Below, in pieces: positions 3,984-59,466 of a stretch of DNA of 64,000 bases; the stretch's first letter is position 1, and each line of letters begins with the position of its first letter. The notes beneath the pieces were generated by a model, which worked only from the letters and a program-made list of their open reading frames with translations, ran no database searches and was not told the origin of the DNA. Made by a program: the position numbers and the translations under genes. Origin of the DNA: Candidatus Woesebacteria bacterium RIFCSPLOWO2_01_FULL_39_61 (GTDB lineage: Bacteria; Patescibacteriota; Microgenomatia; UBA8517); contig MGHI01000039.1 of assembly GCA_001793155.1 (NCBI GenBank), positions 1,119 to 65,118 of the forward strand, given 5' to 3'.

Positions 3984-5180
3984 TTAATACATAAGTAAAT
4001 ATCTGATAATAAGGAAAGAATTAATCATAAAAAGGAAAAATATGCTCGTAAGTATAAATGCTAGGTTCACTTGTTTCATTAGTTTCTCGATAAAGTAGGC
4101 GAGACCAAAGGTAATTATTGGGTAAGTCGTTATCAGCATCCGAATACTATATGATCCTCCCTGATAATAGTCTCGCCACGAAGCGATTAGATAAAGTTGT
4201 ATTAAAAAATAGAAAATCCCCATAAAACTTATCAATTTTTGCTTTTTCCAAAATAAAAATAATCCAAATAGACCCAGAGCAATCGTAGGAGTTAGTATAA
4301 AAAGCCCGTTCTGGATGTTAAAAAGTACATAACTTATATGGGGTGAAAGAAATGTGAACCCATAACCCCAACCGTAAGGCGGAAAATAAAAGTCAAAAAA
4401 TATTTTCCAAAGATAGATTTGAGGAAGAAAGCCGAGGAGGATACCAGTAACAAGTAACAAGTAACAAGTAACAAGAATTTTTAGATGCTTTCTGAACTTA
4501 AAAAATATCGCGATAGCGGGAATTGTAAAAATAATAATATCCTGCGTTCTTATAGTTCCAGCAAGTCCCGAAAGAATCCCAAGTATAAAAACGTCGCCGA
4601 GCGTGAGGTTTTCTAGTTTAGTTGACAAATAATAGACCACAAGTGAAGAGATAAAAAAAGACACAGCGTGGGAATTTATTGGTTCGACGGCGATATAGAA
4701 TAGGAGATTTGTGGTTGCAAAGAGAATAAATGCTGCAAATAAGCTGCTTTGGTTTTTAAAATATTTTTTCAAAGTATGGTAGACAAAAAATAGACCTAGC
4801 ACACCGAGAATGATGTTTATTAACCCGACGGCAAATTGATAAGTGAGCTCCAGTCCTGTTCTTTGCAAAGTTATCAATCTAACGAGGTTATCGGTTAGCA
4901 AATACGGAAAATACCATAAAATGGCAGACCCTGGAGCAAAGGTGTTTATCGCCAGACCTCGCGAGTTAACTGATGGTTTTATACCCAAAAGTTCGAAATC
5001 GTTTACTAAATTTATATCGCGATCAAAAACCCAGGATCTTACGTAGGCATAATAAAATTTACCGTCGCCAAAAACTGCGTTTTTGGTAAAGATGGTATGA
5101 CCAATAAAGATTACTATCGAAAAAATAAATATATATGTAAAAAATTTTATTGTGGCAATTTGCTTAATAGCTTTTTCCAT
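3984..5180 (-). CDS. polytopic membrane protein, possible GT-C-fold glycosyltransferase (ArnT/PMT-like)
   Basis: 398 aa with about 11-12 hydrophobic helices; contains the in-frame (GTAACAA)x4 tract. Confidence 0.4.
   Translation of the reverse strand: MEKAIKQIATIKFFTYIFIFSIVIFIGHTIFTKNAVFGDGKFYYAYVRSWVFDRDINLVNDFELLGIKPSVNSRGLAINTFAPGSAILWYFPYLLTDNLVRLITLQRTGLELTYQFAVGLINIILGVLGLFFVYHTLKKYFKNQSSLFAAFILFATTNLLFYIAVEPINSHAVSFFISSLVVYYLSTKLENLTLGDVFILGILSGLAGTIRTQDIIIFTIPAIAIFFKFRKHLKILVTCYLLLVTGILLGFLPQIYLWKIFFDFYFPPYGWGYGFTFLSPHISYVLFNIQNGLFILTPTIALGLFGLFLFWKKQKLISFMGIFYFLIQLYLIASWRDYYQGGSYSIRMLITTYPIITFGLAYFIEKLMKQVNLAFILTSIFFLFMINSFLIIRYLLMY
4447..4475. repeat. heptanucleotide tandem tract (GTAACAA)x4 inside a CDS
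   Basis: Direct reading: gtaacaagtaacaagtaacaagtaacaag. Confidence 0.8.
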
Positions 5181-37622: not shown

Positions 37623-38012
37623 ATGATAAAAGGTATTGATGCAGTTACACTTTTTAGCGAAAACGCAGAAAAACTTGCTAAATTTTACAAAGAAAAAGTT
37701 GGCTTAAAACCAACTGGTGAATTTGTAATGGGTGAGGGAAAAGATGAGGCTAATGTATATATGTACGAATATAAAAAAGGTGGCGATTTTGCGATAATTG
37801 ACCACTCAAAAGTGAAAGGAAAGAATAAGAATCCGGAAAGATACCTCGTTAACTTCGAAGTTGATGATATAAAGAAAGAAGTTGCCAAGCTTAAAAAGAA
37901 TAAGGTTAAGGTTATTGCCGATACTTACCATGTAGAAGGGTACGGTTGGGTTGCAACTTTTCAGGATATTGATGGAAACTACTTTCAGCTGGTACAAGTT
38001 AGACCGAGTTAG
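37623..38012 (+). CDS. VOC/glyoxalase-family protein
   Basis: Small beta-alpha-beta-beta-beta modules; ORF track 37557.. trimmed to the ATG. Confidence 0.5.
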   Translation: MIKGIDAVTLFSENAEKLAKFYKEKVGLKPTGEFVMGEGKDEANVYMYEYKKGGDFAIIDHSKVKGKNKNPERYLVNFEVDDIKKEVAKLKKNKVKVIADTYHVEGYGWVATFQDIDGNYFQLVQVRPS

Positions 38013-38036
38013 TAGATAGCAAATAGTAGATAGAAG
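38009..38036. repeat. left inverted-repeat arm (agtagat agcaaat units) flanking the four-helix-bundle gene
   Basis: ttagtagatagcaaatagtagatagaag; its reverse complement recurs at 38439..38485. Confidence 0.8.
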
Positions 38037-38061
38037 ATGGGAAAAAAGATAAACTGTCTTA

Positions 38062-38424
38062 GTGGCTAAAATCGAAAGATTTACAGATCTTAAAGCATGG
38101 CAAGAAGGGCACCAATTAGTCCTTATGATCTACGGAGTTGTCAAGACTTTCCCAAAAGAAGAAAACTTCATCCTTACTACTCAAATACTCCGAGCTGTAA
38201 TATCTGTTACTAATAATCTGGCTGAGGGGTTTGGTAGAAGATATTATAAAGAAAAAATTCAGTTTTATTCGATGGCCAGAGCTTCATTGGTTGAAGTTTG
38301 CAATCAACTTATGATAGCCAGAGATGTTGGTTATTTGAACAGAAAAGACTTTGACTTTGTATGGGAACAAACTGACAAAGTAGGTAGATTAATTACAGGA
38401 TTAATAAAAAGTATTAAAAAATAA
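38062..38424 (+). CDS. four-helix-bundle protein (TIGR02436-type, the '23S rRNA intervening sequence protein' family)
   Basis: LKAWQ...FPKEE...LTTQILRAV.S...NLAEGFGRR motif series typical of the family. Confidence 0.85.
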   Translation: MAKIERFTDLKAWQEGHQLVLMIYGVVKTFPKEENFILTTQILRAVISVTNNLAEGFGRRYYKEKIQFYSMARASLVEVCNQLMIARDVGYLNRKDFDFVWEQTDKVGRLITGLIKSIKK

Positions 38425-38438
38425 GACTTAGTCCTATA

Positions 38439-38485
38439 ATTGCTATTTGCAATCTACTATTTGCTATCTACTATTTGCTATCTAC
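38439..38485. repeat. right inverted-repeat arm (atttgct atctact units, three copies)
   Basis: attgctatttgcaatctactatttgctatctactatttgctatctac. Confidence 0.8.
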
Positions 38486-38489
38486 CAAA

Positions 38490-48034: not shown

Positions 48035-49132
48035 ATGCGTATTAATAAAATTAGACTTTCAAATTTCAGAAACTTTAAGGCCCAAATTCTGGAGTTTTCG
48101 GAAAAAATCATTGTTATTGTTGGTCCAAATGCATCAGGTAAAACAAATATTATAGAGGCGATATTTCTTCTTTCTACCGGTAAGTCATTCCACGCTCGAG
48201 TCGAGGAAGAGATGGTTCACTACGAAGAGGAAATTGGACGAGTAAAAGGTTCGGTGGTAGAAGCTGACAAAGAAAGAGTCGGTACAAATCTGGAGGTAAT
48301 CTTGACCCGCGGTGAAATTACAGTTGGTGTATCTCCCAAAAAAACCGAAAGGATTGCAAGGAAAAAATTGGTCGTTAATGGAGTTGCCCGGCGTCTGGTT
48401 GATTTTGCCGGGAGGTTCAAGGTGGTACTTTTTGGGCCTTGGGACATGAGTATCGTAACCGGACCCCCAACGCTTAGAAGGAATTTTTTGGACACAGTGC
48501 TATCGCAGGTTGACAGAGAGTATAGAAGGGCCTCCCTTTCCTATGAGAAAGGCCTAAGACAAAGAAACAGACTACTTTTCAGGATCAGAGAAGAAGGATT
48601 ATCGAGAAGCCAGCTTCTTTTTTGGGACCAACTTCTTATCAAAAACGGCAATTATCTAACCCAAAGGCGTGAAGATTTTATTGGTTTTGCAAATAAACGA
48701 CCATCTTTAAATAACCAAGTTTTTAATATTGAATACGACAAAAGTATCATCAGTCAGACCAGGCTGGAGCAGTATAAAGACGAGGAAGTTGCTGCCGCAA
48801 CTACACTGGTCGGACCCCACAGAGATGACTTCATCTTCAAAATCCAAAATCCAAATTCCAAATTCCAAAAAGAAAGAGAACTGAGCAGGTACGGGAGTAG
48901 GGGGGAACAGAGGATGGGTATCTTGTGGCTCAAAATAGCCGAGCTTTCTTTTATCGAGAGCGAATCCGAAGATAAACCGACTCTTTTATTGGACGATATT
49001 TTCTCTGAACTTGATCACGAACACAGAAAGATTGTTTTGGACGTTTCCAAAAACCAACAGACGATCATTACAACGGCTGATCCTCATTATATTGAAGAAT
49101 TTGAGAAAATTGAAATAATTAAGCTAAAGTGA
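48035..49132 (+). CDS. recF: DNA replication and repair protein RecF
   Basis: Walker A GPNASGKTN, signature and D-loop LLLDDIFSELD. Confidence 0.85.
   Translation: MRINKIRLSNFRNFKAQILEFSEKIIVIVGPNASGKTNIIEAIFLLSTGKSFHARVEEEMVHYEEEIGRVKGSVVEADKERVGTNLEVILTRGEITVGVSPKKTERIARKKLVVNGVARRLVDFAGRFKVVLFGPWDMSIVTGPPTLRRNFLDTVLSQVDREYRRASLSYEKGLRQRNRLLFRIREEGLSRSQLLFWDQLLIKNGNYLTQRREDFIGFANKRPSLNNQVFNIEYDKSIISQTRLEQYKDEEVAAATTLVGPHRDDFIFKIQNPNSKFQKERELSRYGSRGEQRMGILWLKIAELSFIESESEDKPTLLLDDIFSELDHEHRKIVLDVSKNQQTIITTADPHYIEEFEKIEIIKLK
48836..48870. repeat. heptanucleotide tract (TTCAAAA TCCAAAA TCCAAAT TCCAAAT TCCAAAA) inside recF
   Basis: Read directly; encodes an N/K/Q-rich loop (KIQNPNSKFQKE). Confidence 0.8.
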
Positions 49133-49146
49133 AATTATATGGAGCT

Positions 49147-49482
49147 TTATTCTTTGTCGTCTTTTTCTGCAAATTTGCTTAGGTTATAAGTGACCATCAC
49201 AGCCAGTGCAGTTACCAATATCGCATAAACCAGAAGAGAAACGAGTCCTGATCCCTCCCCGAAGTATGGCTTAACATAAATATTGACCACCTCCTTGATC
49301 AATTCGTTCCAGGCTAACGCCGCAACCAATCCAAAACCGCTTGTAACCAACTTTAAAGTTCTTTCCGCAAATTGCTTTTTGAATTTACTGGCCTCGTTTT
49401 TCAATTTTGACTGAAGAGCTTTGGTTTCCTCTTTTTGCTCTTTCAACTCTTTCTGGAGCTTAAGTTCTTTAAGGGTAGCCAT
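49147..49482 (-). CDS. hypothetical membrane protein
   Basis: ORF track 49147..49557 trimmed to Met (MATLKEL); C-terminal TM helices. Confidence 0.45.
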   Translation of the reverse strand: MATLKELKLQKELKEQKEETKALQSKLKNEASKFKKQFAERTLKLVTSGFGLVAALAWNELIKEVVNIYVKPYFGEGSGLVSLLVYAILVTALAVMVTYNLSKFAEKDDKE

Positions 49483-49507
49483 GGTTAGTGATAGTATATT
49501 GAGAGAA

Positions 49508-49583
49508 GTAATAAGTGACAAGTAACAAGCGACAAGATTTAGATATTGGAGGGACAACTTGTTACCTGTTACATGTTACTTAG
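49508..49583. repeat. solo inverted repeat of heptad units (GTGACAA/GTAACAA arms, 21-nt spacer)
   Basis: gtaataagtgacaagtaacaagcgacaag ... cttgttacctgttacatgttacttag. Confidence 0.75.
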
Positions 49584-50478
49584 AATTTTTGATAAGTCTG
49601 ATTTAATTAAACTCTACAAACCCCATCCAGAATCTTCAGGGGAAGATAATGGGCAGGTAACGATCGTCGGAGGATCCAAGCTTTTCCACGGAGCGCCGCT
49701 TTTATCTTTGACGACTGCTTCCAGAATTGTGGACATGGTCTTTTTTGCAACACCCGAGAAAAGCGTTGGGATGATCGCAGAAAAGTTAAAATCCAAATTA
49801 CTTTCGTTCATCTGGACACCTTGGGAGGATGTTGAATCCTATATCGAAAAGTCTGACGCCGTACTTATCGGACCCGGATTTATGCGTTTTGGAAGTGAGA
49901 GTACTTCCGAGGACGATCGTGATTTTTCAAACCACAATGAAGGGAAACAATCCAGGGGAATAACGGAAAGACTTTTAAAGAAGTTTCCCGACAAGCGCTG
50001 GGTAATTGATGCGGGGAGCTTGCAGACTATGGACGAAAGTTGGATTCCCAACGATTCTGTTCTCACCCCCAACGTTAAAGAGTTCGAATTGCTTTTCAAA
50101 ATGAAAAATCAAATATCAAATATTAAAGATTCAAATCAAAAATCAAAAATTGTTTTGGAAAAGGCCAAAGAACACAATTGTATTCTTGTTTTAAAGGGTC
50201 CTGAAACCGTCGTTTGTTCACCGGAAGAATGCGTTGTAGTTAGGGGAGGCAATCCGGGGATGTCAAAAGGAGGTACGGGTGATGTTTTGGCCGGATTAAC
50301 CGTTGCACTTTTAGCCAAAAACGAACCCTTTTTAGCGGCGTCCTGTGCAAGTTATATTGAAAAGGCTGCAGCTGATGAACTTTATAAAAAAGTCGGAACC
50401 AACTATAACGCCGATGATTTAACCAATAAAATTCCAGAAACCTTTTATAATTTACTAAATAATAAAGACCTACCCTGA
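49573..50478 (+). CDS. ADP/ATP-dependent NAD(P)H-hydrate dehydratase (YjeF C-terminal domain, Nnr2)
   Basis: GGS..F.GAPLL, DADAL-like, GGTGDVLAG motifs; ORF track 49546.. trimmed to the ATG. Confidence 0.8.
   Translation: MLLRIFDKSDLIKLYKPHPESSGEDNGQVTIVGGSKLFHGAPLLSLTTASRIVDMVFFATPEKSVGMIAEKLKSKLLSFIWTPWEDVESYIEKSDAVLIGPGFMRFGSESTSEDDRDFSNHNEGKQSRGITERLLKKFPDKRWVIDAGSLQTMDESWIPNDSVLTPNVKEFELLFKMKNQISNIKDSNQKSKIVLEKAKEHNCILVLKGPETVVCSPEECVVVRGGNPGMSKGGTGDVLAGLTVALLAKNEPFLAASCASYIEKAAADELYKKVGTNYNADDLTNKIPETFYNLLNNKDLP
50104..50152. repeat. A-rich heptad tract (7 units, AAATATC/CAAATCA-like) inside the nnr CDS
   Basis: Read directly; encodes NQISNIKDSNQKSKI. Confidence 0.7.
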
Positions 50479-50522
50479 GCGAAGCCGAAGGGTTGTTTTT
50501 TCCGCAGAATCTCCGTAAGATA

Positions 50523-50551
50523 GTAACAAGTGACAGGTAACAAGTAAAAAG
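50523..50551. repeat. left inverted-repeat arm (GTAACAA GTGACAG GTAACAA GTAAAAA) ending 3 nt before the four-helix-bundle gene ATG
   Basis: Read directly. Confidence 0.8.
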
Positions 50552-50553
50552 TT

Positions 50554-50925
50554 ATGGAAAAAGCTGGAATAAAACCTGTTGGATACGAGAAACTATTGGC
50601 CTGGCAGGTAGCAGATGAATTCGCGCGGGAAGTTTATTTGTTAACAGATTCTTTTCCTAAACATGAAGTGTATGGTTTGATATCACAATTAAGGCGTGCA
50701 GCACTATCAGTCCCGCTAAATATAGTTGAAGGTCATTCTAGATACAATAAAAACGAATTTCGTAATTTTTTGAGGATTGCTTTAGGATCTCTTGCAGAGA
50801 GTGATTATCTTCTTAAATTTGCTCTTAAAAGAAAGTATATTTCAGATAGTGATTACAAAAAAGTATCCATCTTGCGCGAGAAATGCGGCAAGTTACTTTG
50901 GAGCTTGATGAAATCGCAAAAATAA
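50554..50925 (+). CDS. four-helix-bundle protein (TIGR02436-type), second copy
   Basis: LLAWQ...FPKHE.YGLISQLRRAALS...NIVEG motif series. Confidence 0.85.
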   Translation: MEKAGIKPVGYEKLLAWQVADEFAREVYLLTDSFPKHEVYGLISQLRRAALSVPLNIVEGHSRYNKNEFRNFLRIALGSLAESDYLLKFALKRKYISDSDYKKVSILREKCGKLLWSLMKSQK

Positions 50926-50933
50926 TATTTAAA

Positions 50934-50960
50934 ACCTGTTACATGCTACTTGTTACTTAA
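50934..50960. repeat. right inverted-repeat arm (reverse complement of GTAACAA-type units)
   Basis: acctgttacatgctacttgttacttaa. Confidence 0.8.
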
Positions 50961-52382: not shown

Positions 52383-54095
52383 ATGAAATTTGAAAAACTA
52401 TCAGTTTATTTGGACAAACTGGAAAAAACTTCCTCGAGAATTGAGATTACAAAAATTTTGGCTGATCTTTTTAAGGAAGCAAGGTATGAAGAGATCGATA
52501 AAATAGTCTATCTGCTTCTGGGAAGTCTGGCTCCAAGTTACGAAGGCGTTGTCTTTAATTTGGCCGAAAGAATGATGATGAGAATATTAGCCAAGGCCTT
52601 TGGAAAAGAAGTCGATTATGTTACCAGGCTTTATAAACAAAAAGGCGATTTGGGAGAAGTTGCACAAGAATTAGCAACAACAAAGGGGACAAATATATCC
52701 GTGAGCGAGATTTATGAAAAACTTTTAGCTATCGCCCAGGAGCATGGTGATGCGAGTCAGGAAAGAAAAATAAACGAAACAGCGAATGTTTTATCAATGC
52801 TTGATCCACTATCTGCACGGTTTGTAGCGAGAATTCCGGTAGGGCGGCTTCGTCTCGGATTTTCCGATAAAACAATACTTGATGCTTTATCCTGGATGGA
52901 AACCGGGGGAAAAAGCAAAAAGGCTGATTTGGAAAGCGCTTACAATATCCGTCCCGACGTTGGGCTATTAGCAAGGATGGTTAAAGAGAGGGGAATTGAA
53001 AAAGCTGCAAAGGAGATAGATCCCCACATTGGAGTTCCAATTATGCCAATGCTTGCTCAAAGGCTCAAAAGTCCGTCCGAAATGATTGAGAAGATGAAAC
53101 GGGTATATGTTGAGCCAAAATTTGACGGGCTTAGAATTCAAATTCACTATAAAAAAAGCGGATTTGATAACGGAAAGCGAGTAAAAGCCTTTACCAGAAA
53201 CCTAAATGAAACCTCATGGATGTTTCCCGAGTTGAATGAAATTGAAAAACAAATTGCCGCAGATGATGTAATTTTGGATTCCGAGGCGATCGGAGTTGAT
53301 GAGGAGAGGAAGACCCTGGCTAATTTTCAGACGACCATGACCCGAAGGCGAAAACACGATATTGAACAAATTGCCGCCAAAATGAAAATTAGATTTTATG
53401 TTTTTGATCTGATGCTGAAAAATCAGAAGAGTTTAATCAATGAGACTTATATCAAAAGGCGCGAAGAATTAGATAAAACGATAAAGAAAGGTAATGTATT
53501 GCAGGTTGTTAATTATGAAGTAACCGAAAGATCTGAAAGAATAAACGAGTTGATGCGCAAAGAACTAAAGGAAGGAATGGAGGGAATTATTGTTAAGCGT
53601 GCAGACAGCAGTTACATTGCTGGCAGGACAGGCTGGCGCTGGGTAAAAATGAAAGAGGAAGAAACCTCGTATGCCAAGCTTGCAGATACCATTGACTGTG
53701 TTGTAATGGGATATTCCGCGGGTCGGGGTAAAAGGGTTGGTTTTGGTCTGGGACAATTTCTAGTGGGAGTAAGAGACGGCGATGAAGTTAAAACGGTTAC
53801 TAAAGTAGGAACAGGGTTAACAGATGAGCAATTTAGAGAGCTTAAGAGGCGTTTAAAGGGATTGGAAGTCAAAGAAAAACCCAAAAATTATCTAGTAAAT
53901 AAACTTTTGGAACCGGACTATTGGGTTACGCCCGAGATCGTAGTCGAAATCGCAGCCGACGAAATTACCAAAAGCCCGACCCACACAGCCGGCCTAGCCC
54001 TAAGGTTTCCAAGATTAATTAAATTTAGAGACGATAAGAGTTATGAAGAAGCAACTACTGTTGGGGAATTAAAGAATCTTTTTAAATTACAATGA
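52383..54095 (+). CDS. ATP-dependent DNA ligase
   Basis: KxDG adenylation motif (KFDGLR), EGIIVK motif, OB domain. Confidence 0.85.
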   Translation: MKFEKLSVYLDKLEKTSSRIEITKILADLFKEARYEEIDKIVYLLLGSLAPSYEGVVFNLAERMMMRILAKAFGKEVDYVTRLYKQKGDLGEVAQELATTKGTNISVSEIYEKLLAIAQEHGDASQERKINETANVLSMLDPLSARFVARIPVGRLRLGFSDKTILDALSWMETGGKSKKADLESAYNIRPDVGLLARMVKERGIEKAAKEIDPHIGVPIMPMLAQRLKSPSEMIEKMKRVYVEPKFDGLRIQIHYKKSGFDNGKRVKAFTRNLNETSWMFPELNEIEKQIAADDVILDSEAIGVDEERKTLANFQTTMTRRRKHDIEQIAAKMKIRFYVFDLMLKNQKSLINETYIKRREELDKTIKKGNVLQVVNYEVTERSERINELMRKELKEGMEGIIVKRADSSYIAGRTGWRWVKMKEEETSYAKLADTIDCVVMGYSAGRGKRVGFGLGQFLVGVRDGDEVKTVTKVGTGLTDEQFRELKRRLKGLEVKEKPKNYLVNKLLEPDYWVTPEIVVEIAADEITKSPTHTAGLALRFPRLIKFRDDKSYEEATTVGELKNLFKLQ

Positions 54096-54517
54096 CATCG
54101 AAAATGCGAAAAGTACCAAAAATAGTTACACTCTTTATTTTGAATTCCGAAAATAAACTCCTCATAGTTAAAAGAAGTAAAAATAAATGGATTCTTGCGG
54201 ATAAGTGGGGATATCCGGGTGGAGTAATGGAAAAAGGTGAAACCACAGAGACCGCAGTTCATAGGGAAGTAGTACCTAAAGTAGGTTTCGATGTGACAAT
54301 AGCGAATATTGGAAAGAAACAAAGGATGATTTTGAGTAACAAAGAAGTTGATGTAATACCAGTTTTATGTAGGTCAGACTCATCAGAAGTTAAATTGAAT
54401 TATAAAAATAGTAAATACAAATGGATAGATCCGAAAGAACTATTGACCTACAACTTGGGTGTCAAAAAAGATTTTGTTATAAAAATGACAAAATCTGTAG
54501 GATTGATAATTCAGTGA
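54092..54517 (+). CDS. NUDIX hydrolase
   Basis: GYPGGVMEKGETTETAVHREV..KVG approximates a Nudix box. Confidence 0.6.
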   Translation: MTSKMRKVPKIVTLFILNSENKLLIVKRSKNKWILADKWGYPGGVMEKGETTETAVHREVVPKVGFDVTIANIGKKQRMILSNKEVDVIPVLCRSDSSEVKLNYKNSKYKWIDPKELLTYNLGVKKDFVIKMTKSVGLIIQ

Positions 54518-54659
54518 GTAAAATTGAAAACTTTTCAAGCACCAAAAATCTTAAAAATATCCAAGGTGTGAAGCAATATCACCTTAAAGTTGCATTGTTA
54601 AATTGTTACATGGCTATATTGTTTTGGGTTTAAAAACGAAACTCGTGTTAATATGAAAT

Positions 54660-57140
54660 ATGCCCGAGAATTATTCAGGCTTGCCTTCAAAAGAGGCTGA
54701 AAAGCGACAAAAGGAATATGGTAAAAATGTATTACCGGAAAAACCACCACCACCTTCTTTAAGCATATTTTTTTCCCAGTTTAGAAATCCGCTTGTCTAC
54801 GTTTTATTGGTTGCCGGGATTGTGACGTTTTTCCTGGGAGATTACTCAGATACGCTAATTATTTTTTTTGTTGTTTTGGTAAATTCGATTTTAGGCTATT
54901 TTCAAGAACAAAAAGCCAGTAAAGCTCTAGCCTCTTTAAAGGCCCTAGTTCATCCAACGGCTGATGTTATAAGAGACGGTAAGGAAGTAAGAATTGATGT
55001 AACCGAGGTGGTACCTGGTGATATTGTCGAATTAGAACTAGGCGATAAAATACCCGCTGATGGCAAGCTGGTAAGTGCAAATAGGTTATTTATCGAGGAA
55101 GCAATATTAACGGGCGAATCAATGCCTGTTGAAAAGACAGAAGGGAAGGAAGTTTTTATGGGAACGATAGTAGCATCCGGTGAAGGTTTGATGGAGGTTA
55201 GTGCAATCGCTGCCAGTACTGAGATGGGTAAAATTGCTGTTTCTGTTCAAAAACCCCACGAAGATACACCACTAACCATTCAGCTTAAAATTTTTAGCAG
55301 TCAACTTACGTTATTGGTGATAATTCTTACTGTATTTGTTTTTTCTATCGGATTTATTACAAGTAAGGATTTGGTCGAGATGTTTAAGACTTCGGTTGCA
55401 TTGGCAGTGTCATCAATTCCCGAAGGGCTTTTAATTGCTTTAACTGTTGTTTTGGCTGTTGGGATGCAAAGAATATTGAAAAAGAAAGGACTGGTGAGAA
55501 ATTTGGTATCAGCGGAAACCTTGGGAGGTGTAACCACAATTTGTGTCGACAAAACAGGAACGTTAACTTACGGGAAACTAGAGGTGGTCGAAGAGTACGG
55601 CGACAATGAAAATATCTGTCTTCAGCATTTTGCATCTCAAGAGGATCCAATAATGGTTGCAGCCAAAGAATGGCTGGAAAAACATTCAGAACACTTTAAT
55701 GAAATCGGAAGGACATTTAACAGAGAATGCAGGTTAATCGATTCGATTCCTTTTACCCCACAAAATAGGTTTTACGCCACACTTATCGAGCACGAGGATA
55801 ATAACAAAGAGATTTATGTTAATGGCGCACCCGAGCATTTATTAGAGTGGTCGACGTTAGCTGGCGATAGGCAAAAAGAAATAAGAGATAAGATAAAATC
55901 TCTCACAAAAGAGGGGCGGAGGGTAATAGGCATGGCCAAAAAAGACGTACCCGAAAGCACAGAGAAGGTCACAGAAGAAATGGTAAAAGAAAATATCGAA
56001 TGGGTTGGTCTTTTGGTTTTTACCGATCCTGTAAGAAAGGGAGTGGGGGATGCGTTTAAGCAAACAAAAGATGCTGGCATAAAGACAATTCTCATAACTG
56101 GAGATTATGCCGAGACGGCCCTTGCGGTAATGAGCGAGCTTAAGATTGAGGTGGGAAGCGGTAGAGTTATCAAGGGTGACGAGTTGGAGAAAATGTCCGA
56201 GGAAGAGGTCTCCGTCAAATTAAGGGATATGTACAAAGAAGACAAAGGAGCAGTTTTGTTTGCAAGAACTCGCCCTGAACAAAAGTTAAAGGTAATTAAT
56301 GCCTTAAAGAAAAACGGCGAGGTAGTAGCAATGATGGGCGACGGTGTTAATGACGCTCCCGCATTACACCGCGCCGATATCGGAATTGTCGTTGGGGACG
56401 CAACCGACGTTGCCAAAGAATCGGCGGATCTTGTTCTTCTTGATTCCAGTTTCGAGACGATTGTCGAAACTATAAAAGAAGGAAGAGGTATTTTTGATAA
56501 CATCAGAAAGATTATTCTTTATCTTTTGTGCGACTCTTTCGGGGAAATTATTGCTGTTGTTGGTACGCTAATTATGGGATTACCTCTTCCCGTAACCGCC
56601 GTGCAAATACTTTGGATTAATATTGTTTCTGACGGATTTCCCCATCTTTCTCTAACGGTTGACCCGAAAGCCAAGGGAATAATGCAGAGACCTCCAAGAA
56701 ACCCTTCCGTAAATATAGTTGCTAATTGGATGAAGATACTGATCTTCATGGTATCTGTTGCCGCGGGTGTTATAGCACTTTTTCTTTTTAACACGAATTT
56801 AAATGCAACTGGTAATGAAGTGCTGTCAAGAAGTATCGCGTTTGCTGCCCTTGGAGTAAATTCCTTAGTTTACGTTTTTTCAGTAAGAACGCTGACTGAA
56901 CCTTTTTGGAGCGAAAACCCTTTTGATAATAAATGGTTGAACCTTGCAGTTATCGTCGGCCTCTTTTTCCAAGTTTTGCCATTTTCAACCCCTTTGCTAC
57001 GGAACTTTTTTGAACTTGAAGTTTTAAGCTTCAGCCAATGGGTGGTGGTTTTCGGCGCGTCACTATTTATGTTTATAATAATAGAGATTTCAAAAGTTAT
57101 ATTTAGAAGTTATTTGAAAACGCACTCAGAAGCAACATGA
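54660..57140 (+). CDS. P-type cation-transporting ATPase (type IIA/IIB-like, Ca2+/Mg2+)
   Basis: DKTGTLT phosphorylation site, TGES, MMGDGVNDAPAL hinge. Confidence 0.9.
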   Translation: MPENYSGLPSKEAEKRQKEYGKNVLPEKPPPPSLSIFFSQFRNPLVYVLLVAGIVTFFLGDYSDTLIIFFVVLVNSILGYFQEQKASKALASLKALVHPTADVIRDGKEVRIDVTEVVPGDIVELELGDKIPADGKLVSANRLFIEEAILTGESMPVEKTEGKEVFMGTIVASGEGLMEVSAIAASTEMGKIAVSVQKPHEDTPLTIQLKIFSSQLTLLVIILTVFVFSIGFITSKDLVEMFKTSVALAVSSIPEGLLIALTVVLAVGMQRILKKKGLVRNLVSAETLGGVTTICVDKTGTLTYGKLEVVEEYGDNENICLQHFASQEDPIMVAAKEWLEKHSEHFNEIGRTFNRECRLIDSIPFTPQNRFYATLIEHEDNNKEIYVNGAPEHLLEWSTLAGDRQKEIRDKIKSLTKEGRRVIGMAKKDVPESTEKVTEEMVKENIEWVGLLVFTDPVRKGVGDAFKQTKDAGIKTILITGDYAETALAVMSELKIEVGSGRVIKGDELEKMSEEEVSVKLRDMYKEDKGAVLFARTRPEQKLKVINALKKNGEVVAMMGDGVNDAPALHRADIGIVVGDATDVAKESADLVLLDSSFETIVETIKEGRGIFDNIRKIILYLLCDSFGEIIAVVGTLIMGLPLPVTAVQILWINIVSDGFPHLSLTVDPKAKGIMQRPPRNPSVNIVANWMKILIFMVSVAAGVIALFLFNTNLNATGNEVLSRSIAFAALGVNSLVYVFSVRTLTEPFWSENPFDNKWLNLAVIVGLFFQVLPFSTPLLRNFFELEVLSFSQWVVVFGASLFMFIIIEISKVIFRSYLKTHSEAT

Positions 57141-58108: not shown

Positions 58109-58140
58109 CTTCTTAAAACTAAAAAGTGATATTATACCCA

Positions 58141-59466
58141 ATGAATATCATTGCCGATTTGGAGGTTCACTCTAAGTACGCCCGGGCGGTTTCACCTTCA
58201 ATGAACGTTCCCACAATTGCCCTTTGGGCTGATAAAAAAGGAATTGATTTAGTGGGTAGCGGGGATTTTACTCACCCCATGTGGTTAAGGGAACTCGAAT
58301 CTCAACTGGAGGAGGATGGCGATGGGATTTATAAATTGAAAAATTCCGCAACAAAGTCTAGATTTTTACTGACCTCTGAAGTTTCTTGCATTTATACTCA
58401 CAACGGAAAAGGTAGACGAGTACACATCATGGTTTATTTACCAAGTTTTTCTTCTGTTAGAGCTTTTAATGAGGAATTGACAAAACGAGGCGCAAATTTA
58501 TTTTCTGACGGTCGGCCTATTATCGGTTTGACTCTTACCCAAGTAGCAGAAATTGCTTTGACGGTCGACAAAAGGGCTCTGATTATCCCAGCTCATGTTT
58601 GGACTCCCTGGTTTGGGTTTTACGGAAGTATGAGTGGATACGATAGTTTATCCGAAGCTTTTGGAAATCTGGAAAAATATATACCGGCGGTAGAAACAGG
58701 TCTTAGCAGCGACCCTGCAGCAAATTGGAGAATAGGAGAACTAGCTGGAAAAAGGATCGTTTCCTTCGGAGACGCGCACTCACCTCAAAAACTGGGTCGG
58801 GAAGCGACGGTGTTTCAAATTAAAAATTCAAAATTAAAAATTACTTACCAGGATGTTTATGACGCCATTTGGAATAAAACTGATGGTGGTTGGGAGATTG
58901 CGTATACAATAGAATTTTATCCGGAAGAAGGAAAGTATCACTATACGGGACACAGAAGCTGCAACATTGTCTATTCGCCGAATGAAGCCAGAAAATGGGG
59001 TATGACCTGTCCTACCTGCGGTAGGCAATTAACGATGGGGGTTATGAGTAGAGTAGAGGCACTTTCTTCGCAAGAAATTACAAATGACAAATTACAAATT
59101 ACAAATGATAAGTTGGGTGTAGCCTGGATTAGAGACGAGAAAGGAAAGTATCCTCCATACGTAATGCTTGTTCCGCTTTTGGAAATTCTTTCCGAAGCTC
59201 TGATTGCTGGAGTCGGCAGCCAGACGGTCATAAATGTTTATGAACAGTTAATACACAGTTTTGAAAGTGAATTCAATGTACTTCTTAAAACGGAAATAGC
59301 AGATATTGCAAAAATGGCGGGGCAGAAAATTTCTGAAGCAATTCAAAAAGTACGATCTGGTGATATTTTTATTAAACCCGGATATGATGGGGTTTTTGGT
59401 ACGGTAAAAATTTGGAAAGAGGAAGAAGAAAAAGAAATGGGTAACAATCAGGCAAGCTTGTTTTGA
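58141..59466 (+). CDS. endonuclease Q-like protein (PHP domain plus C-terminal zinc ribbon)
   Basis: N-terminal ADLEVHSKYARAVS...DLVGSGDFTHPMW pattern and C-terminal CPTCGRQLTMGV; resemblance to archaeal EndoQ is recalled from memory, not computed. Confidence 0.5.
   Translation: MNIIADLEVHSKYARAVSPSMNVPTIALWADKKGIDLVGSGDFTHPMWLRELESQLEEDGDGIYKLKNSATKSRFLLTSEVSCIYTHNGKGRRVHIMVYLPSFSSVRAFNEELTKRGANLFSDGRPIIGLTLTQVAEIALTVDKRALIIPAHVWTPWFGFYGSMSGYDSLSEAFGNLEKYIPAVETGLSSDPAANWRIGELAGKRIVSFGDAHSPQKLGREATVFQIKNSKLKITYQDVYDAIWNKTDGGWEIAYTIEFYPEEGKYHYTGHRSCNIVYSPNEARKWGMTCPTCGRQLTMGVMSRVEALSSQEITNDKLQITNDKLGVAWIRDEKGKYPPYVMLVPLLEILSEALIAGVGSQTVINVYEQLIHSFESEFNVLLKTEIADIAKMAGQKISEAIQKVRSGDIFIKPGYDGVFGTVKIWKEEEEKEMGNNQASLF
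58814..58845. repeat. heptad tract (TTCAAAT TAAAAAT TCAAAAT TAAAAAT) inside the EndoQ-like CDS
   Basis: Read directly. Confidence 0.7.
59077..59111. repeat. heptad tract (ATTACAA ATGACAA ATTACAA ATTACAA ATGATAA) inside the EndoQ-like CDS
   Basis: Encodes the duplicated peptide ITNDKLQITNDKL. Confidence 0.8.

Follow-up and report, generated by a model that had tools for sequence, protein, structure and literature searches.

A gene-less hairpin of inverted heptanucleotide repeats at the nnr start codon of a Woesebacteria genome and its relation to intervening-sequence-like cassettes

The genome of Candidatus Woesebacteria bacterium RIFCSPLOWO2_01_FULL_39_61 carries, between the divergent genes for a DUF5654 protein and for the NAD(P)H-hydrate dehydratase Nnr, a hairpin whose two arms are inverted arrays of tandem heptanucleotides (heptads) and which encloses no gene. 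It was studied within a stretch of 64,000 nucleotides (nt) of contig MGHI01000039.1 (positions 1,119 to 65,118), referred to here as the window. The family to which this solo hairpin belongs consists of palindromic insertions with arms of inverted 7-9-nt tandem repeats, the full form of which carries a promoterless PF05635 four-helix-bundle gene. In architecture these insertions resemble the intervening sequences (IVSs) of ribosomal RNA (rRNA), which have been known since about 1990, together with their S23p or four-helix-bundle open reading frame (ORF). The reading that we favour, with rather more confidence than doubt, is that the solo hairpin is an ORF-less member of this IVS-like family, masks the AUG of nnr, and is probably a substrate of RNase III. 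The element is IVS-like, lies outside rRNA and takes the gene-less form, and we found no description of its kind in the literature beyond the heptamers of the Coxiella IVS.

The hairpin had been predicted from the sequence as an inverted repeat of heptads with a 21-nt spacer, situated between a minus-strand gene and nnr, and both inspection of the sequence and a repeat search of the region confirm it (Table 1). Its arms had been estimated at about 28 nt; four heptads are indeed present on the left, while the paired stem extends over about 24 nt and leaves the fourth left heptad without a partner. The repeat search returned arms of 24 nt each (49506-49529 and 49558-49581) with 83% complementarity, the fold of the region contains 22 pairs of which two are G.U, and tandem-repeat analysis places period-7 arrays at 49506-49536 and 49560-49579. 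As RNA the plus strand forms a stable hairpin of -25.8 kcal/mol, compared with -12.9 +/- 2.8 for shuffled sequences (z -4.67), and none of 200 shuffles folds as well; the minus strand reaches -22.0 kcal/mol (z -5.94). A two-arm heptad pattern matches the window once, at this site, with 0.00 matches expected, and pairs of heptads are found 17 times against 5.5 expected, a count attained in none of 100 shuffles. A chance palindrome unrelated to the neighbouring cassette is refuted almost to certainty: beyond the AT-richness of the region nothing favours it, and it is contradicted by the z-scores of both folds, by the expectation for the two-arm pattern, by the heptads common to the solo hairpin and the cassette, and by retention of the hairpin in a relative (L245; loci other than the window are designated by L and a number). 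The solo hairpin matches no Rfam family, neither at the gathering threshold nor at E<=10, and a literature search for the repeat strings found no paper.

The same heptads recur 1 kb downstream, around a four-helix-bundle gene that lies between nnr and a Fic gene. This match, too, was part of the original prediction and is borne out: solo and cassette arms match at 78-83% in direct comparison, and the best-matching pair of arms in the region, with 92% complementarity, consists of the solo right arm (49557-49580) and the cassette left arm (50522-50545). These two elements are alike, and the heptads of a second four-helix-bundle cassette at 38 kb (GTAGATA/GCAAATA) are unrelated to those of both. 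Solo and neighbouring cassette share the heptad type GTAACAA/GTGACAA, each lies just past a -10 element and just before a start codon, and their four alternating complementary arms bracket nnr and the four-helix-bundle gene; the fold of a read-through RNA prefers a nested pairing of these arms. Compared with IVSs and their relatives, the solo hairpin has the terminal inverted repeats with a stem of at least ~20 bp, the arms made of inverted arrays of 7-9-nt tandem repeats, and the repeat unit of a gene-bearing cassette in the same genome. It is not located in a helix of 23S or 16S rRNA, sitting instead between DUF5654 and nnr, and it has no S23p/PF05635 ORF, which the neighbouring cassette carries at 50554-50925. 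Because its 21-nt spacer, devoid of any ORF, does not enclose a four-helix-bundle gene, we file it as an ORF-less relative of the cassettes and not as a cassette.

The cassette architecture proved to be general. Metagenome contigs were scanned with a four-helix-bundle alignment, yielding 80 loci with 73 testable genes, and the inverted repeats in their flanks were compared with controls in which flanks from different loci were paired, using the 95th percentile as the cut-off. Flanking inverted repeats exceed this cut-off in 63 of the 73 PF05635 genes (median score 16.5, against 7.5 in controls), and 55 of these 63 cassettes have arms with a periodicity of 7-9 nt (a period of 7 in 42, 8 in ten, 9 in three), with a period of 10 in one further case. 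The unit sequence varies from locus to locus, and copy number is usually 3-4 per arm. The cassettes are compact, with a median span of 454 nt: a median of 32 nt separates the end of the left arm from the first aligned codon (approximately residue 10), which puts that end a few nucleotides before the start codon, and the right arm begins a median of 2 nt past the stop codon. With arms that nearly abut the start and stop codons, the cassettes have no room for an internal promoter. In 46 of 56 cassettes the right arm is followed, no more than 60 nt away, by the start of an ORF on the same strand, compared with 135 of 280 random positions, which serve as a crude control. Cassettes that are 71-74% identical to the one next to nnr and have its heptads are found in other genomic contexts (L158, L244). 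Insertions of this kind have been described in the operon gap between cmr3 and cmr2 (PMC3936711) and in rRNA (PMC11270868); in the literature on PF05635, IVP and S23p we found periodic arms described only as the Coxiella heptamers.

Gene-less hairpins are similarly widespread, so that the solo structure, as the original prediction required, is present at other loci. A scan for the two-arm pattern covered one genome per species; chance would account for tens of hits in the whole collection, by a rough estimate that assumes uniform base composition. It revealed gene-less heptad hairpins at at least 120 loci across many phyla, often several per genome, and further examples in viral contigs. Among the matches listed, the arms hold 3-6 heptads and the loops are short in almost every case, the hairpins usually occupy tight gaps, and, according to crude ORF calls, 68 lie between co-directional, 24 between convergent and 12 between divergent genes, with three inside ORFs. 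Hosts among these matches are Acidobacteriota (Pyrinomonadaceae), Hymenobacter, Chloroflexota, Nitrospirae, Planctomycetes, Proteobacteria, Coxiellaceae and several lineages of the Candidate Phyla Radiation; the cultured strains Hymenobacter gummosus KCTC 52166 and H. jeollabukensis 1-3-3-8 have at least three such hairpins apiece. Gene-less hairpins with the units of a nearby cassette are found in L158, L276 and L278, and in L245; solo units differ from the cassette arms of the same locus in three of the five genome-scan loci with a four-helix-bundle gene (L141, L151, L160). Several viral contigs (L005, L008, L017, L034, L048, L056, L083, L113) contain elements of ~100 nt with heptad arms, GGTAACAG/CTGTTACC, and a conserved AT-rich interior; they could represent an intermediate size class between solos and gene cassettes, or a separate small-RNA locus.

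Among known systems, the 23S rRNA IVSs with an S23p/PF05635 ORF in Coxiella burnetii and Leptospira are like the window elements in size (~430-480 nt here, 428 nt in Coxiella) and in their terminal inverted repeats, with a 24-28-bp stem of tandem heptamers of variable copy number, and they are like the cassette in protein family and in lacking a promoter of their own. In Coxiella the terminal stem of the IVS measures 28 bp and includes tandem GACAGAT heptamers in numbers that vary among strains, and RNase III cuts within this stem (PMC4990558). The window elements differ in lying between protein-coding genes and not in rRNA helix 25 or 45, the solo hairpin differs in having no ORF, and RNase III cleavage, demonstrated in Coxiella, is presumed for the window by analogy. 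ORF-less rRNA IVSs, gene-less stem-loops in a transcribed region that RNase III removes without re-ligation, are a second point of comparison, and those described from Salmonella by Burgin et al. in 1990 are reportedly ~100 nt long and ORF-less. The solo hairpin is likewise a gene-less extended stem-loop, but in a putative mRNA leader with a start codon and not in an rRNA helix; to our knowledge, heptad periodicity has not been reported for ORF-less rRNA IVSs. Outside rRNA, a heptamer-repeat hairpin in the 5' untranslated region (UTR) of hmw1A in H. influenzae is processed by RNase III, which raises expression, and both the hairpin and RNase III are required for changes in repeat number (PMC12721329). 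The two have in common tandem 7-nt repeats in a long hairpin, a place in the 5' UTR if the predicted promoter of nnr is correct, and possibly changes in repeat number. In contrast, only the left arm at hmw1A is repetitive, the right arm being a G-rich tract, and hmw1A is a single phase-variable locus with no mobile cassette or link to PF05635, not a dispersed family.

Other repeat families share some of these features. The REPtrons, made up of repetitive extragenic palindromes (REPs) or their hairpin-forming doublets (REPINs) and a REP-associated tyrosine transposase (RAYT), also comprise short, intergenic, multi-copy palindromes with conserved stems and variable loops, combine a small gene flanked by inverted repeats with many gene-less copies, and prefer co-directional and convergent gaps. 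Their repeat-flanked gene encodes a Y1 transposase, whereas that in the window belongs to PF05635, a family of proteins with no known catalytic activity; in addition, each REP is palindromic by itself, whereas here two arms pair, and the arms are tandem heptads that need no GTAG head. TAACTGA heptanucleotide repeats in Beggiatoaceae, cyanobacteria and Bacteroidetes form 169 direct arrays and one inverted array (PMC4679880). These repeats and the short tandemly repeated repetitive (STRR) sequences of cyanobacteria resemble the window arrays in their 7-nt units, repeated 2-6 times, in their location, which is mostly intergenic with a start codon immediately following and occasionally within an ORF, and in occurring in distant phyla; they differ in being almost all direct, in their unit sequence, and in not being reported as paired arms around a gene. 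Integron cassettes are promoterless single-gene cassettes with imperfect palindromes and an external promoter, as PF05635 cassettes are, but attC is one palindrome at one end that is recognised by an integrase, whereas the PF05635 gene is flanked by two arms, with no integrase and no cassette array.

The position of the solo hairpin relative to its neighbouring genes bears on what it might do. It had been described as intergenic, which does not hold for the whole of the right arm, since this arm supplies the nnr ATG (49573-49575) and codons 2-3; this start is common to the 301-aa database call and to an alignment with relatives. In the minimum-energy fold the U and the G of the AUG are paired, making it plausible, as proposed at the outset, that the hairpin could occlude translation initiation. 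The extended -10-like element TGATAGTAT, about 9 nt ahead of the left arm, is conserved in L003 and in L180/L245, and on this basis nnr transcription probably starts near 49504, in which case the hairpin would in its entirety form the 5' leader of nnr. On the opposite strand the left arm supplies the -35 of the predicted DUF5654 promoter (10 of 12 matches in a promoter scan), TTGTCA being the reverse complement of the heptad GTGACAA. The outermost heptad of L245 gives an identical TTGTCA-17-TATACT geometry, and alignments with hairpin-free relatives show TTGGAA/TTGGTA-17-TATACT. The GGAGGG in the loop, initially taken for the ribosome-binding site of nnr, is unlikely to be one, as it is 19 nt short of the AUG and missing from the orthologous L245 hairpin. 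A further plus-strand promoter predicted in the right arm (TTGTTA-16-TAGAAT) was treated as a chance match: L245 does not share its -10, and shuffled sequences would be expected to yield more promoter-like sites than the region has. Both mechanical ORF calling and the ENA gene call carry DUF5654 across the hairpin to a TTG start at 49557 (49147-49557, minus strand; 136 aa). Homology places the start at the ATG at 49482, and the longer call is thus an annotation artefact caused by the hairpin.

This arrangement leaves very little room for an intrinsic transcription terminator or attenuator of a flanking gene, the terminator-like hairpin of the original prediction. Both neighbouring genes begin, and do not end, at the hairpin. 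The nnr -10 precedes it, its stem is rich in A and U and takes in the nnr start codon, and a terminator scan predicts no terminator-like site at 49500-49600. On the other side stand a run of five T located 6 nt past the stem and the surveyed gene-less hairpins, which among the matches listed are commoner between convergent than between divergent genes and are often found directly after stop codons.

Comparison with relatives shows that the solo hairpin is conserved in one and absent from others. Many Woesebacteria preserve the gene order recF, DUF5654, nnr, Fic, ligase. L180 and L245, which are the same organism, are syntenic with the window over 7 kb and have both elements at the same two sites, so that the solo structure, whose conservation in relatives had been named as a test of the prediction, is kept in place. 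Their right arm is identical to that of the window at 27 of 27 positions over AACTTGTTACCTGTTACATGTTACTTA, the heptads of the left arm are reordered, and the cassette is inserted at an identical junction, CCGTAAGATA to GTAACAAG. The L245 loop is shorter (14 nt) and unrelated to that of the window. With a 7-nt alignment gap, the two stems pair in registers one heptad apart, which renders column-wise covariation counts between them meaningless; in this one between-species comparison the window has four heptads on the left and three on the right, and L245 has three on each side. Five relatives with no heptad hairpin at the solo site have short spacers between DUF5654 and nnr (L002, L003, L325, L327, L328), L324 has an unrelated insert there, and upstream of Fic the cassette is absent from L002, L003, L324, L325 and L328, the contig of L327 ending at that site and being excluded. 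A more distant relative, L246, also has no solo hairpin, and its nnr-Fic site holds a cassette made of other heptads, the right arm of which has 11 units. No target-site duplication flanks either junction if L002, L003, L325 and L328 are taken as the empty state. A miniature inverted-repeat transposable element was rejected on this ground, and because gene-less copies in other genomes share arms and not loops.

Several of these loci have peculiarities of their own. The right arm in L246 (2600-2690) comprises 11 heptads, TGATAGG/TGATACG, with a 28-nt higher-order repeat, and abuts the Fic ATG directly. In L245 an extra unpaired array at 1993-2031 (GTAACAG GTCATAA GTAACAA GTGACAA) gives the last codons and the stop of nnr; it is 83% complementary to the solo right arm, and nnr is thus bracketed by complementary arrays. 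The nnr leader of L328 (Woesebacteria RIFCSPHIGHO2_01_FULL_39_32), at 2430-2500, has direct 9-10-nt tandem repeats, CGAATGTATG..., and no hairpin. A segment of the ATP-dependent DNA ligase gene in L180 (1-1222, reverse strand) has 90.7% nucleotide identity with the window (53626-54826), and its neighbouring genes are 64-72% identical, which suggests recent recombination or unusual constraint on the segment. L180 (CAYSZS010000035.1) is labelled 'uncultured Gammaproteobacteria', yet its synteny with the Woesebacteria window covers the whole 7 kb, and the contig is probably mis-binned.

How the solo hairpin came to be at nnr can be considered against these relatives. It may be a deletion derivative, in which a full cassette once stood upstream of nnr and an internal deletion removed its ORF, a possibility that we entertain with considerable doubt. 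The identity of its heptads with those of the neighbouring cassette would be accounted for in this way, the S23p ORF of the Coxiella IVS has been reported to be decaying (PMC4990558), and the viral contigs hold arms that enclose only ~100 nt. The beginning of the loop also weakly resembles the reverse complement of the 3' inner flank of the cassette (10 of 13 positions, by eye), although this resemblance is too short for significance. Against a deletion, the 21-nt loop has no recognisable ORF remnant, the L245 loop differs from it, and none of the relatives compared has a full cassette at the DUF5654-nnr site. Judging by the different 14-nt loop of the L245 solo, the two species had not yet diverged when the solo form arose, and as this form is conserved between them, any deletion would be old. 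An excision footprint or 'empty cassette', one of the explanations first offered, is unproven, and growth in place or a gene-less insertion fits the data equally well.

We consider it unlikely that the hairpin grew in place, by expansion of a small inverted repeat in the nnr leader through slippage and template switching between the arms, followed by gene conversion that made the arms resemble those of the nearby cassette. The hairpin-free L003, L325 and L327 do carry AAGTAAT...TTACC at the site, the stems of the window and of L245 are one heptad out of register, with a 7-nt alignment gap, short tandem repeats of another sort occupy the L328 nnr leader, period-7 arrays are common elsewhere in the window, and heptamer copy number varies among Coxiella strains (PMC4990558). 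However, for this origin the arms would have had to converge on the exact heptad of a cassette 1 kb away, or be converted to it, the TTCCAA conserved in relatives is explained as the DUF5654 -35 and not as a repeat seed, and the similarity to a seed is limited to 5-7 AT-rich bases.

In the mechanism that we favour, the nnr mRNA would begin with the hairpin, as the position of the promoter suggests, and the 22-24-bp stem would mask the nnr AUG. By analogy with the IVS of Coxiella and the hmw leader of Haemophilus, the stem would be a substrate for RNase III, and cleavage, or else melting of the stem, would free the start codon. Cleavage would also remove the insertion from the RNA, and such removal would explain the tolerance of these insertions in leaders, tight intercistronic gaps and rRNA helices. 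Over time, slippage of the heptads would alter the register and length of the stem.

A number of observations weigh against this mechanism. Across 66 solos between co-directional genes the sense strand is no stabler than the antisense strand (36 versus 29, Wilcoxon p 0.54), and G.U pairs are about equally frequent on the two (123 sense, 121 antisense). In 64 cassettes oriented by their gene, mismatches are not biased towards G.U in the sense strand (62 versus 72, p 0.44). A better fold of the sense strand is limited to the two related nnr loci, where it is found in both species (-25.8 versus -22.0 in the window, -24.5 versus -16.0 in L180). Moreover, the 64-kb window has no RNase III gene signature, and the solos listed favour convergent over divergent gaps, 24 to 12, so that the copy in the nnr leader is atypically placed. 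Finally, the nnr tree fits about three losses of the elements or about three gains at the same site, which are equally parsimonious; as one or the other is needed, solo and cassette are dynamic elements.

With no RNA-specific signature in solos or cassettes, complementarity of the arms may be kept by a process at the level of DNA. The hairpin would then be a cruciform, a site for recombination or insertion, or a site bound by a protein (an operator of the four-helix-bundle protein, for example), and its presence in RNA would be incidental. We judge this rather improbable, even though the lack of wobble bias fits it, the hairpin lies within two divergent promoters, both species have a heptad as the DUF5654 -35 with unchanged spacing, and tandem subterminal repeats are classic multi-site protein-binding arrays. 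PF05635 proteins have no known DNA-binding activity, no recombinase is located nearby, the units of cassette and solo differ in the three of five genome-scan loci named above, and the 3-4 copies per arm have no peak at 5 to match a pentamer. The protein encoded at 50554-50925 has as its nearest solved structure XCC0516 (PDB 2GSC), with five chains in the entry. The periodic arms might be cis-recognition sites of a pentameric four-helix-bundle protein, one unit per subunit contact, comparable to those of the trp RNA-binding attenuation protein (TRAP) on RNA or to the subterminal repeats of transposon ends on DNA. This is a speculation to which we give little weight, and its simplest form, one repeat per subunit of the pentamer, was rejected since arm copy numbers peak at 3-4 and not at 5. 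If it were true, PF05635 genes and gene-less hairpins would be a new kind of autonomous and non-autonomous pair, analogous to RAYT and REP, that spreads in many phyla into leaders, rRNA helices and the gaps of operons; nnr and other host genes would have their expression tied to the cassette protein, and the 'IVS protein' family would have a function after 30 years with none on record.

Table 1. Positions of the solo hairpin, the four-helix-bundle cassettes and associated features in the window
Feature	Positions	Strand	Details
Left arm (array) of solo hairpin	49506..49536	+	AAGTAATAAGTGACAAGTAACAAGCGACAAG; four tandem heptads GTAATAA GTGACAA GTAACAA GCGACAA; 49506-49529 paired
Loop (spacer) of solo hairpin	49537..49557	+	21 nt, ATTTAGATATTGGAGGGACAA; GGAGGG at 49548-49553
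Right arm of solo hairpin	49558..49581	+	CTTGTTACCTGTTACATGTTACTT; three heptads, CTTGTTAC CTGTTAC ATGTTAC TT
nnr, NAD(P)H-hydrate dehydratase, YjeF C-terminal type	49573..50478	+	Database gene call P0001, 301 aa
Extended -10-like element, read as nnr promoter	49489..49497	+	TGATAGTAT; sequence comparison with L003, L180/L245
DUF5654 gene, divergent neighbour	49147..49482	-	PF18898, 3.2e-20; ATG at 49482, 111 aa
Sigma-70-like DUF5654 promoter (predicted)	49493..49521	-	-35 TTGTCA 49521-49516, 17-nt spacer, -10 TATACT 49498-49493
Left arm of neighbouring cassette	50523..50551	+	GTAACAA GTGACAG GTAACAA GTAAAAA
Four-helix-bundle gene, 23S rRNA intervening-sequence protein family	50554..50925	+	TIGR02436 5e-32; PF05635 1.4e-33
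Right arm of neighbouring cassette	50935..50958	+	Ends 9 nt short of Fic ATG (50968)
Fic promoter	50493..50521	+	TTGTTT, 17 nt, TAAGAT; conserved in relatives
Second four-helix-bundle cassette	38010..38487	+	Left arm 38010-38037 GTAGATA/GCAAATA; gene ~38062-38424; right arm 38440-38487
Unpaired perfect (GTAACAA)x4 array	4447..4474	+	Inside minus-strand membrane-protein ORF 3984-5180

The neighbouring cassette is inserted exactly between the -10 of the Fic promoter and the Fic ATG. In the relatives L002, L003, L325 and L328 this ATG is 6-8 nt past the conserved -10, and judging from these sequences their Fic mRNA appears leaderless or near-leaderless; the insertion turns a short Fic leader into a long structured one. 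Neither four-helix-bundle protein of the window matches a PADLOC defence model. An Rfam scan of the window returned three tRNAs and one small RNA and no rRNA; the small RNA, at 1978-2080 on the minus strand, is DUF3800-III, just above its gathering score (45.6 bits versus 43.8). An ENA contig matches the window with one mismatch in 8.9 kb, and those nnr homologues for which a source is named bear the labels Woesebacteria, Microgenomates or Patescibacteria.

Heptad arrays are also found at other places in the window. The perfect array at 4447-4474, with the unit of the solo hairpin and no inverted partner nearby, encodes ..ILVTCYLLLVTG... A period-7 CAAAATC array lies within recF (48838-48870), and 7.7 copies of AAAATCA lie in a variable segment of nnr (50098-50150). 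Within a 446-aa ORF (58126-59466), direct arrays of AAATTAA (58817-58843) and AAATTAC (59075-59106), ~230 nt apart, bracket a Cys-rich segment. Heptanucleotide slippage seems to be general in this genome.

The function and origin of rRNA IVSs and their S23p ORF remain unexplained. Our findings indicate that the IVS architecture, a heptamer stem with or without a PF05635 gene, is that of a compact cassette without a promoter, which is general and for the most part located outside rRNA. Its gene-less versions are common in many phyla, and their presence in cultured Hymenobacter strains opens the question to experiment. Insertion is precise, between a promoter and a start codon, and a host gene can draw its start codon, its stop codon or a -35 box from the inserted element. 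Should they be only neutral palindromes, their value would lie in annotation, since gene callers ran DUF5654 through the hairpin. If RNase III removes them, however, it would be understandable how a selfish insertion can sit in an rRNA helix, a leader or a tight operon gap and leave the host gene functional, and a class of leader hairpins tunable by repeat length, like that of hmw, would be added to those known.

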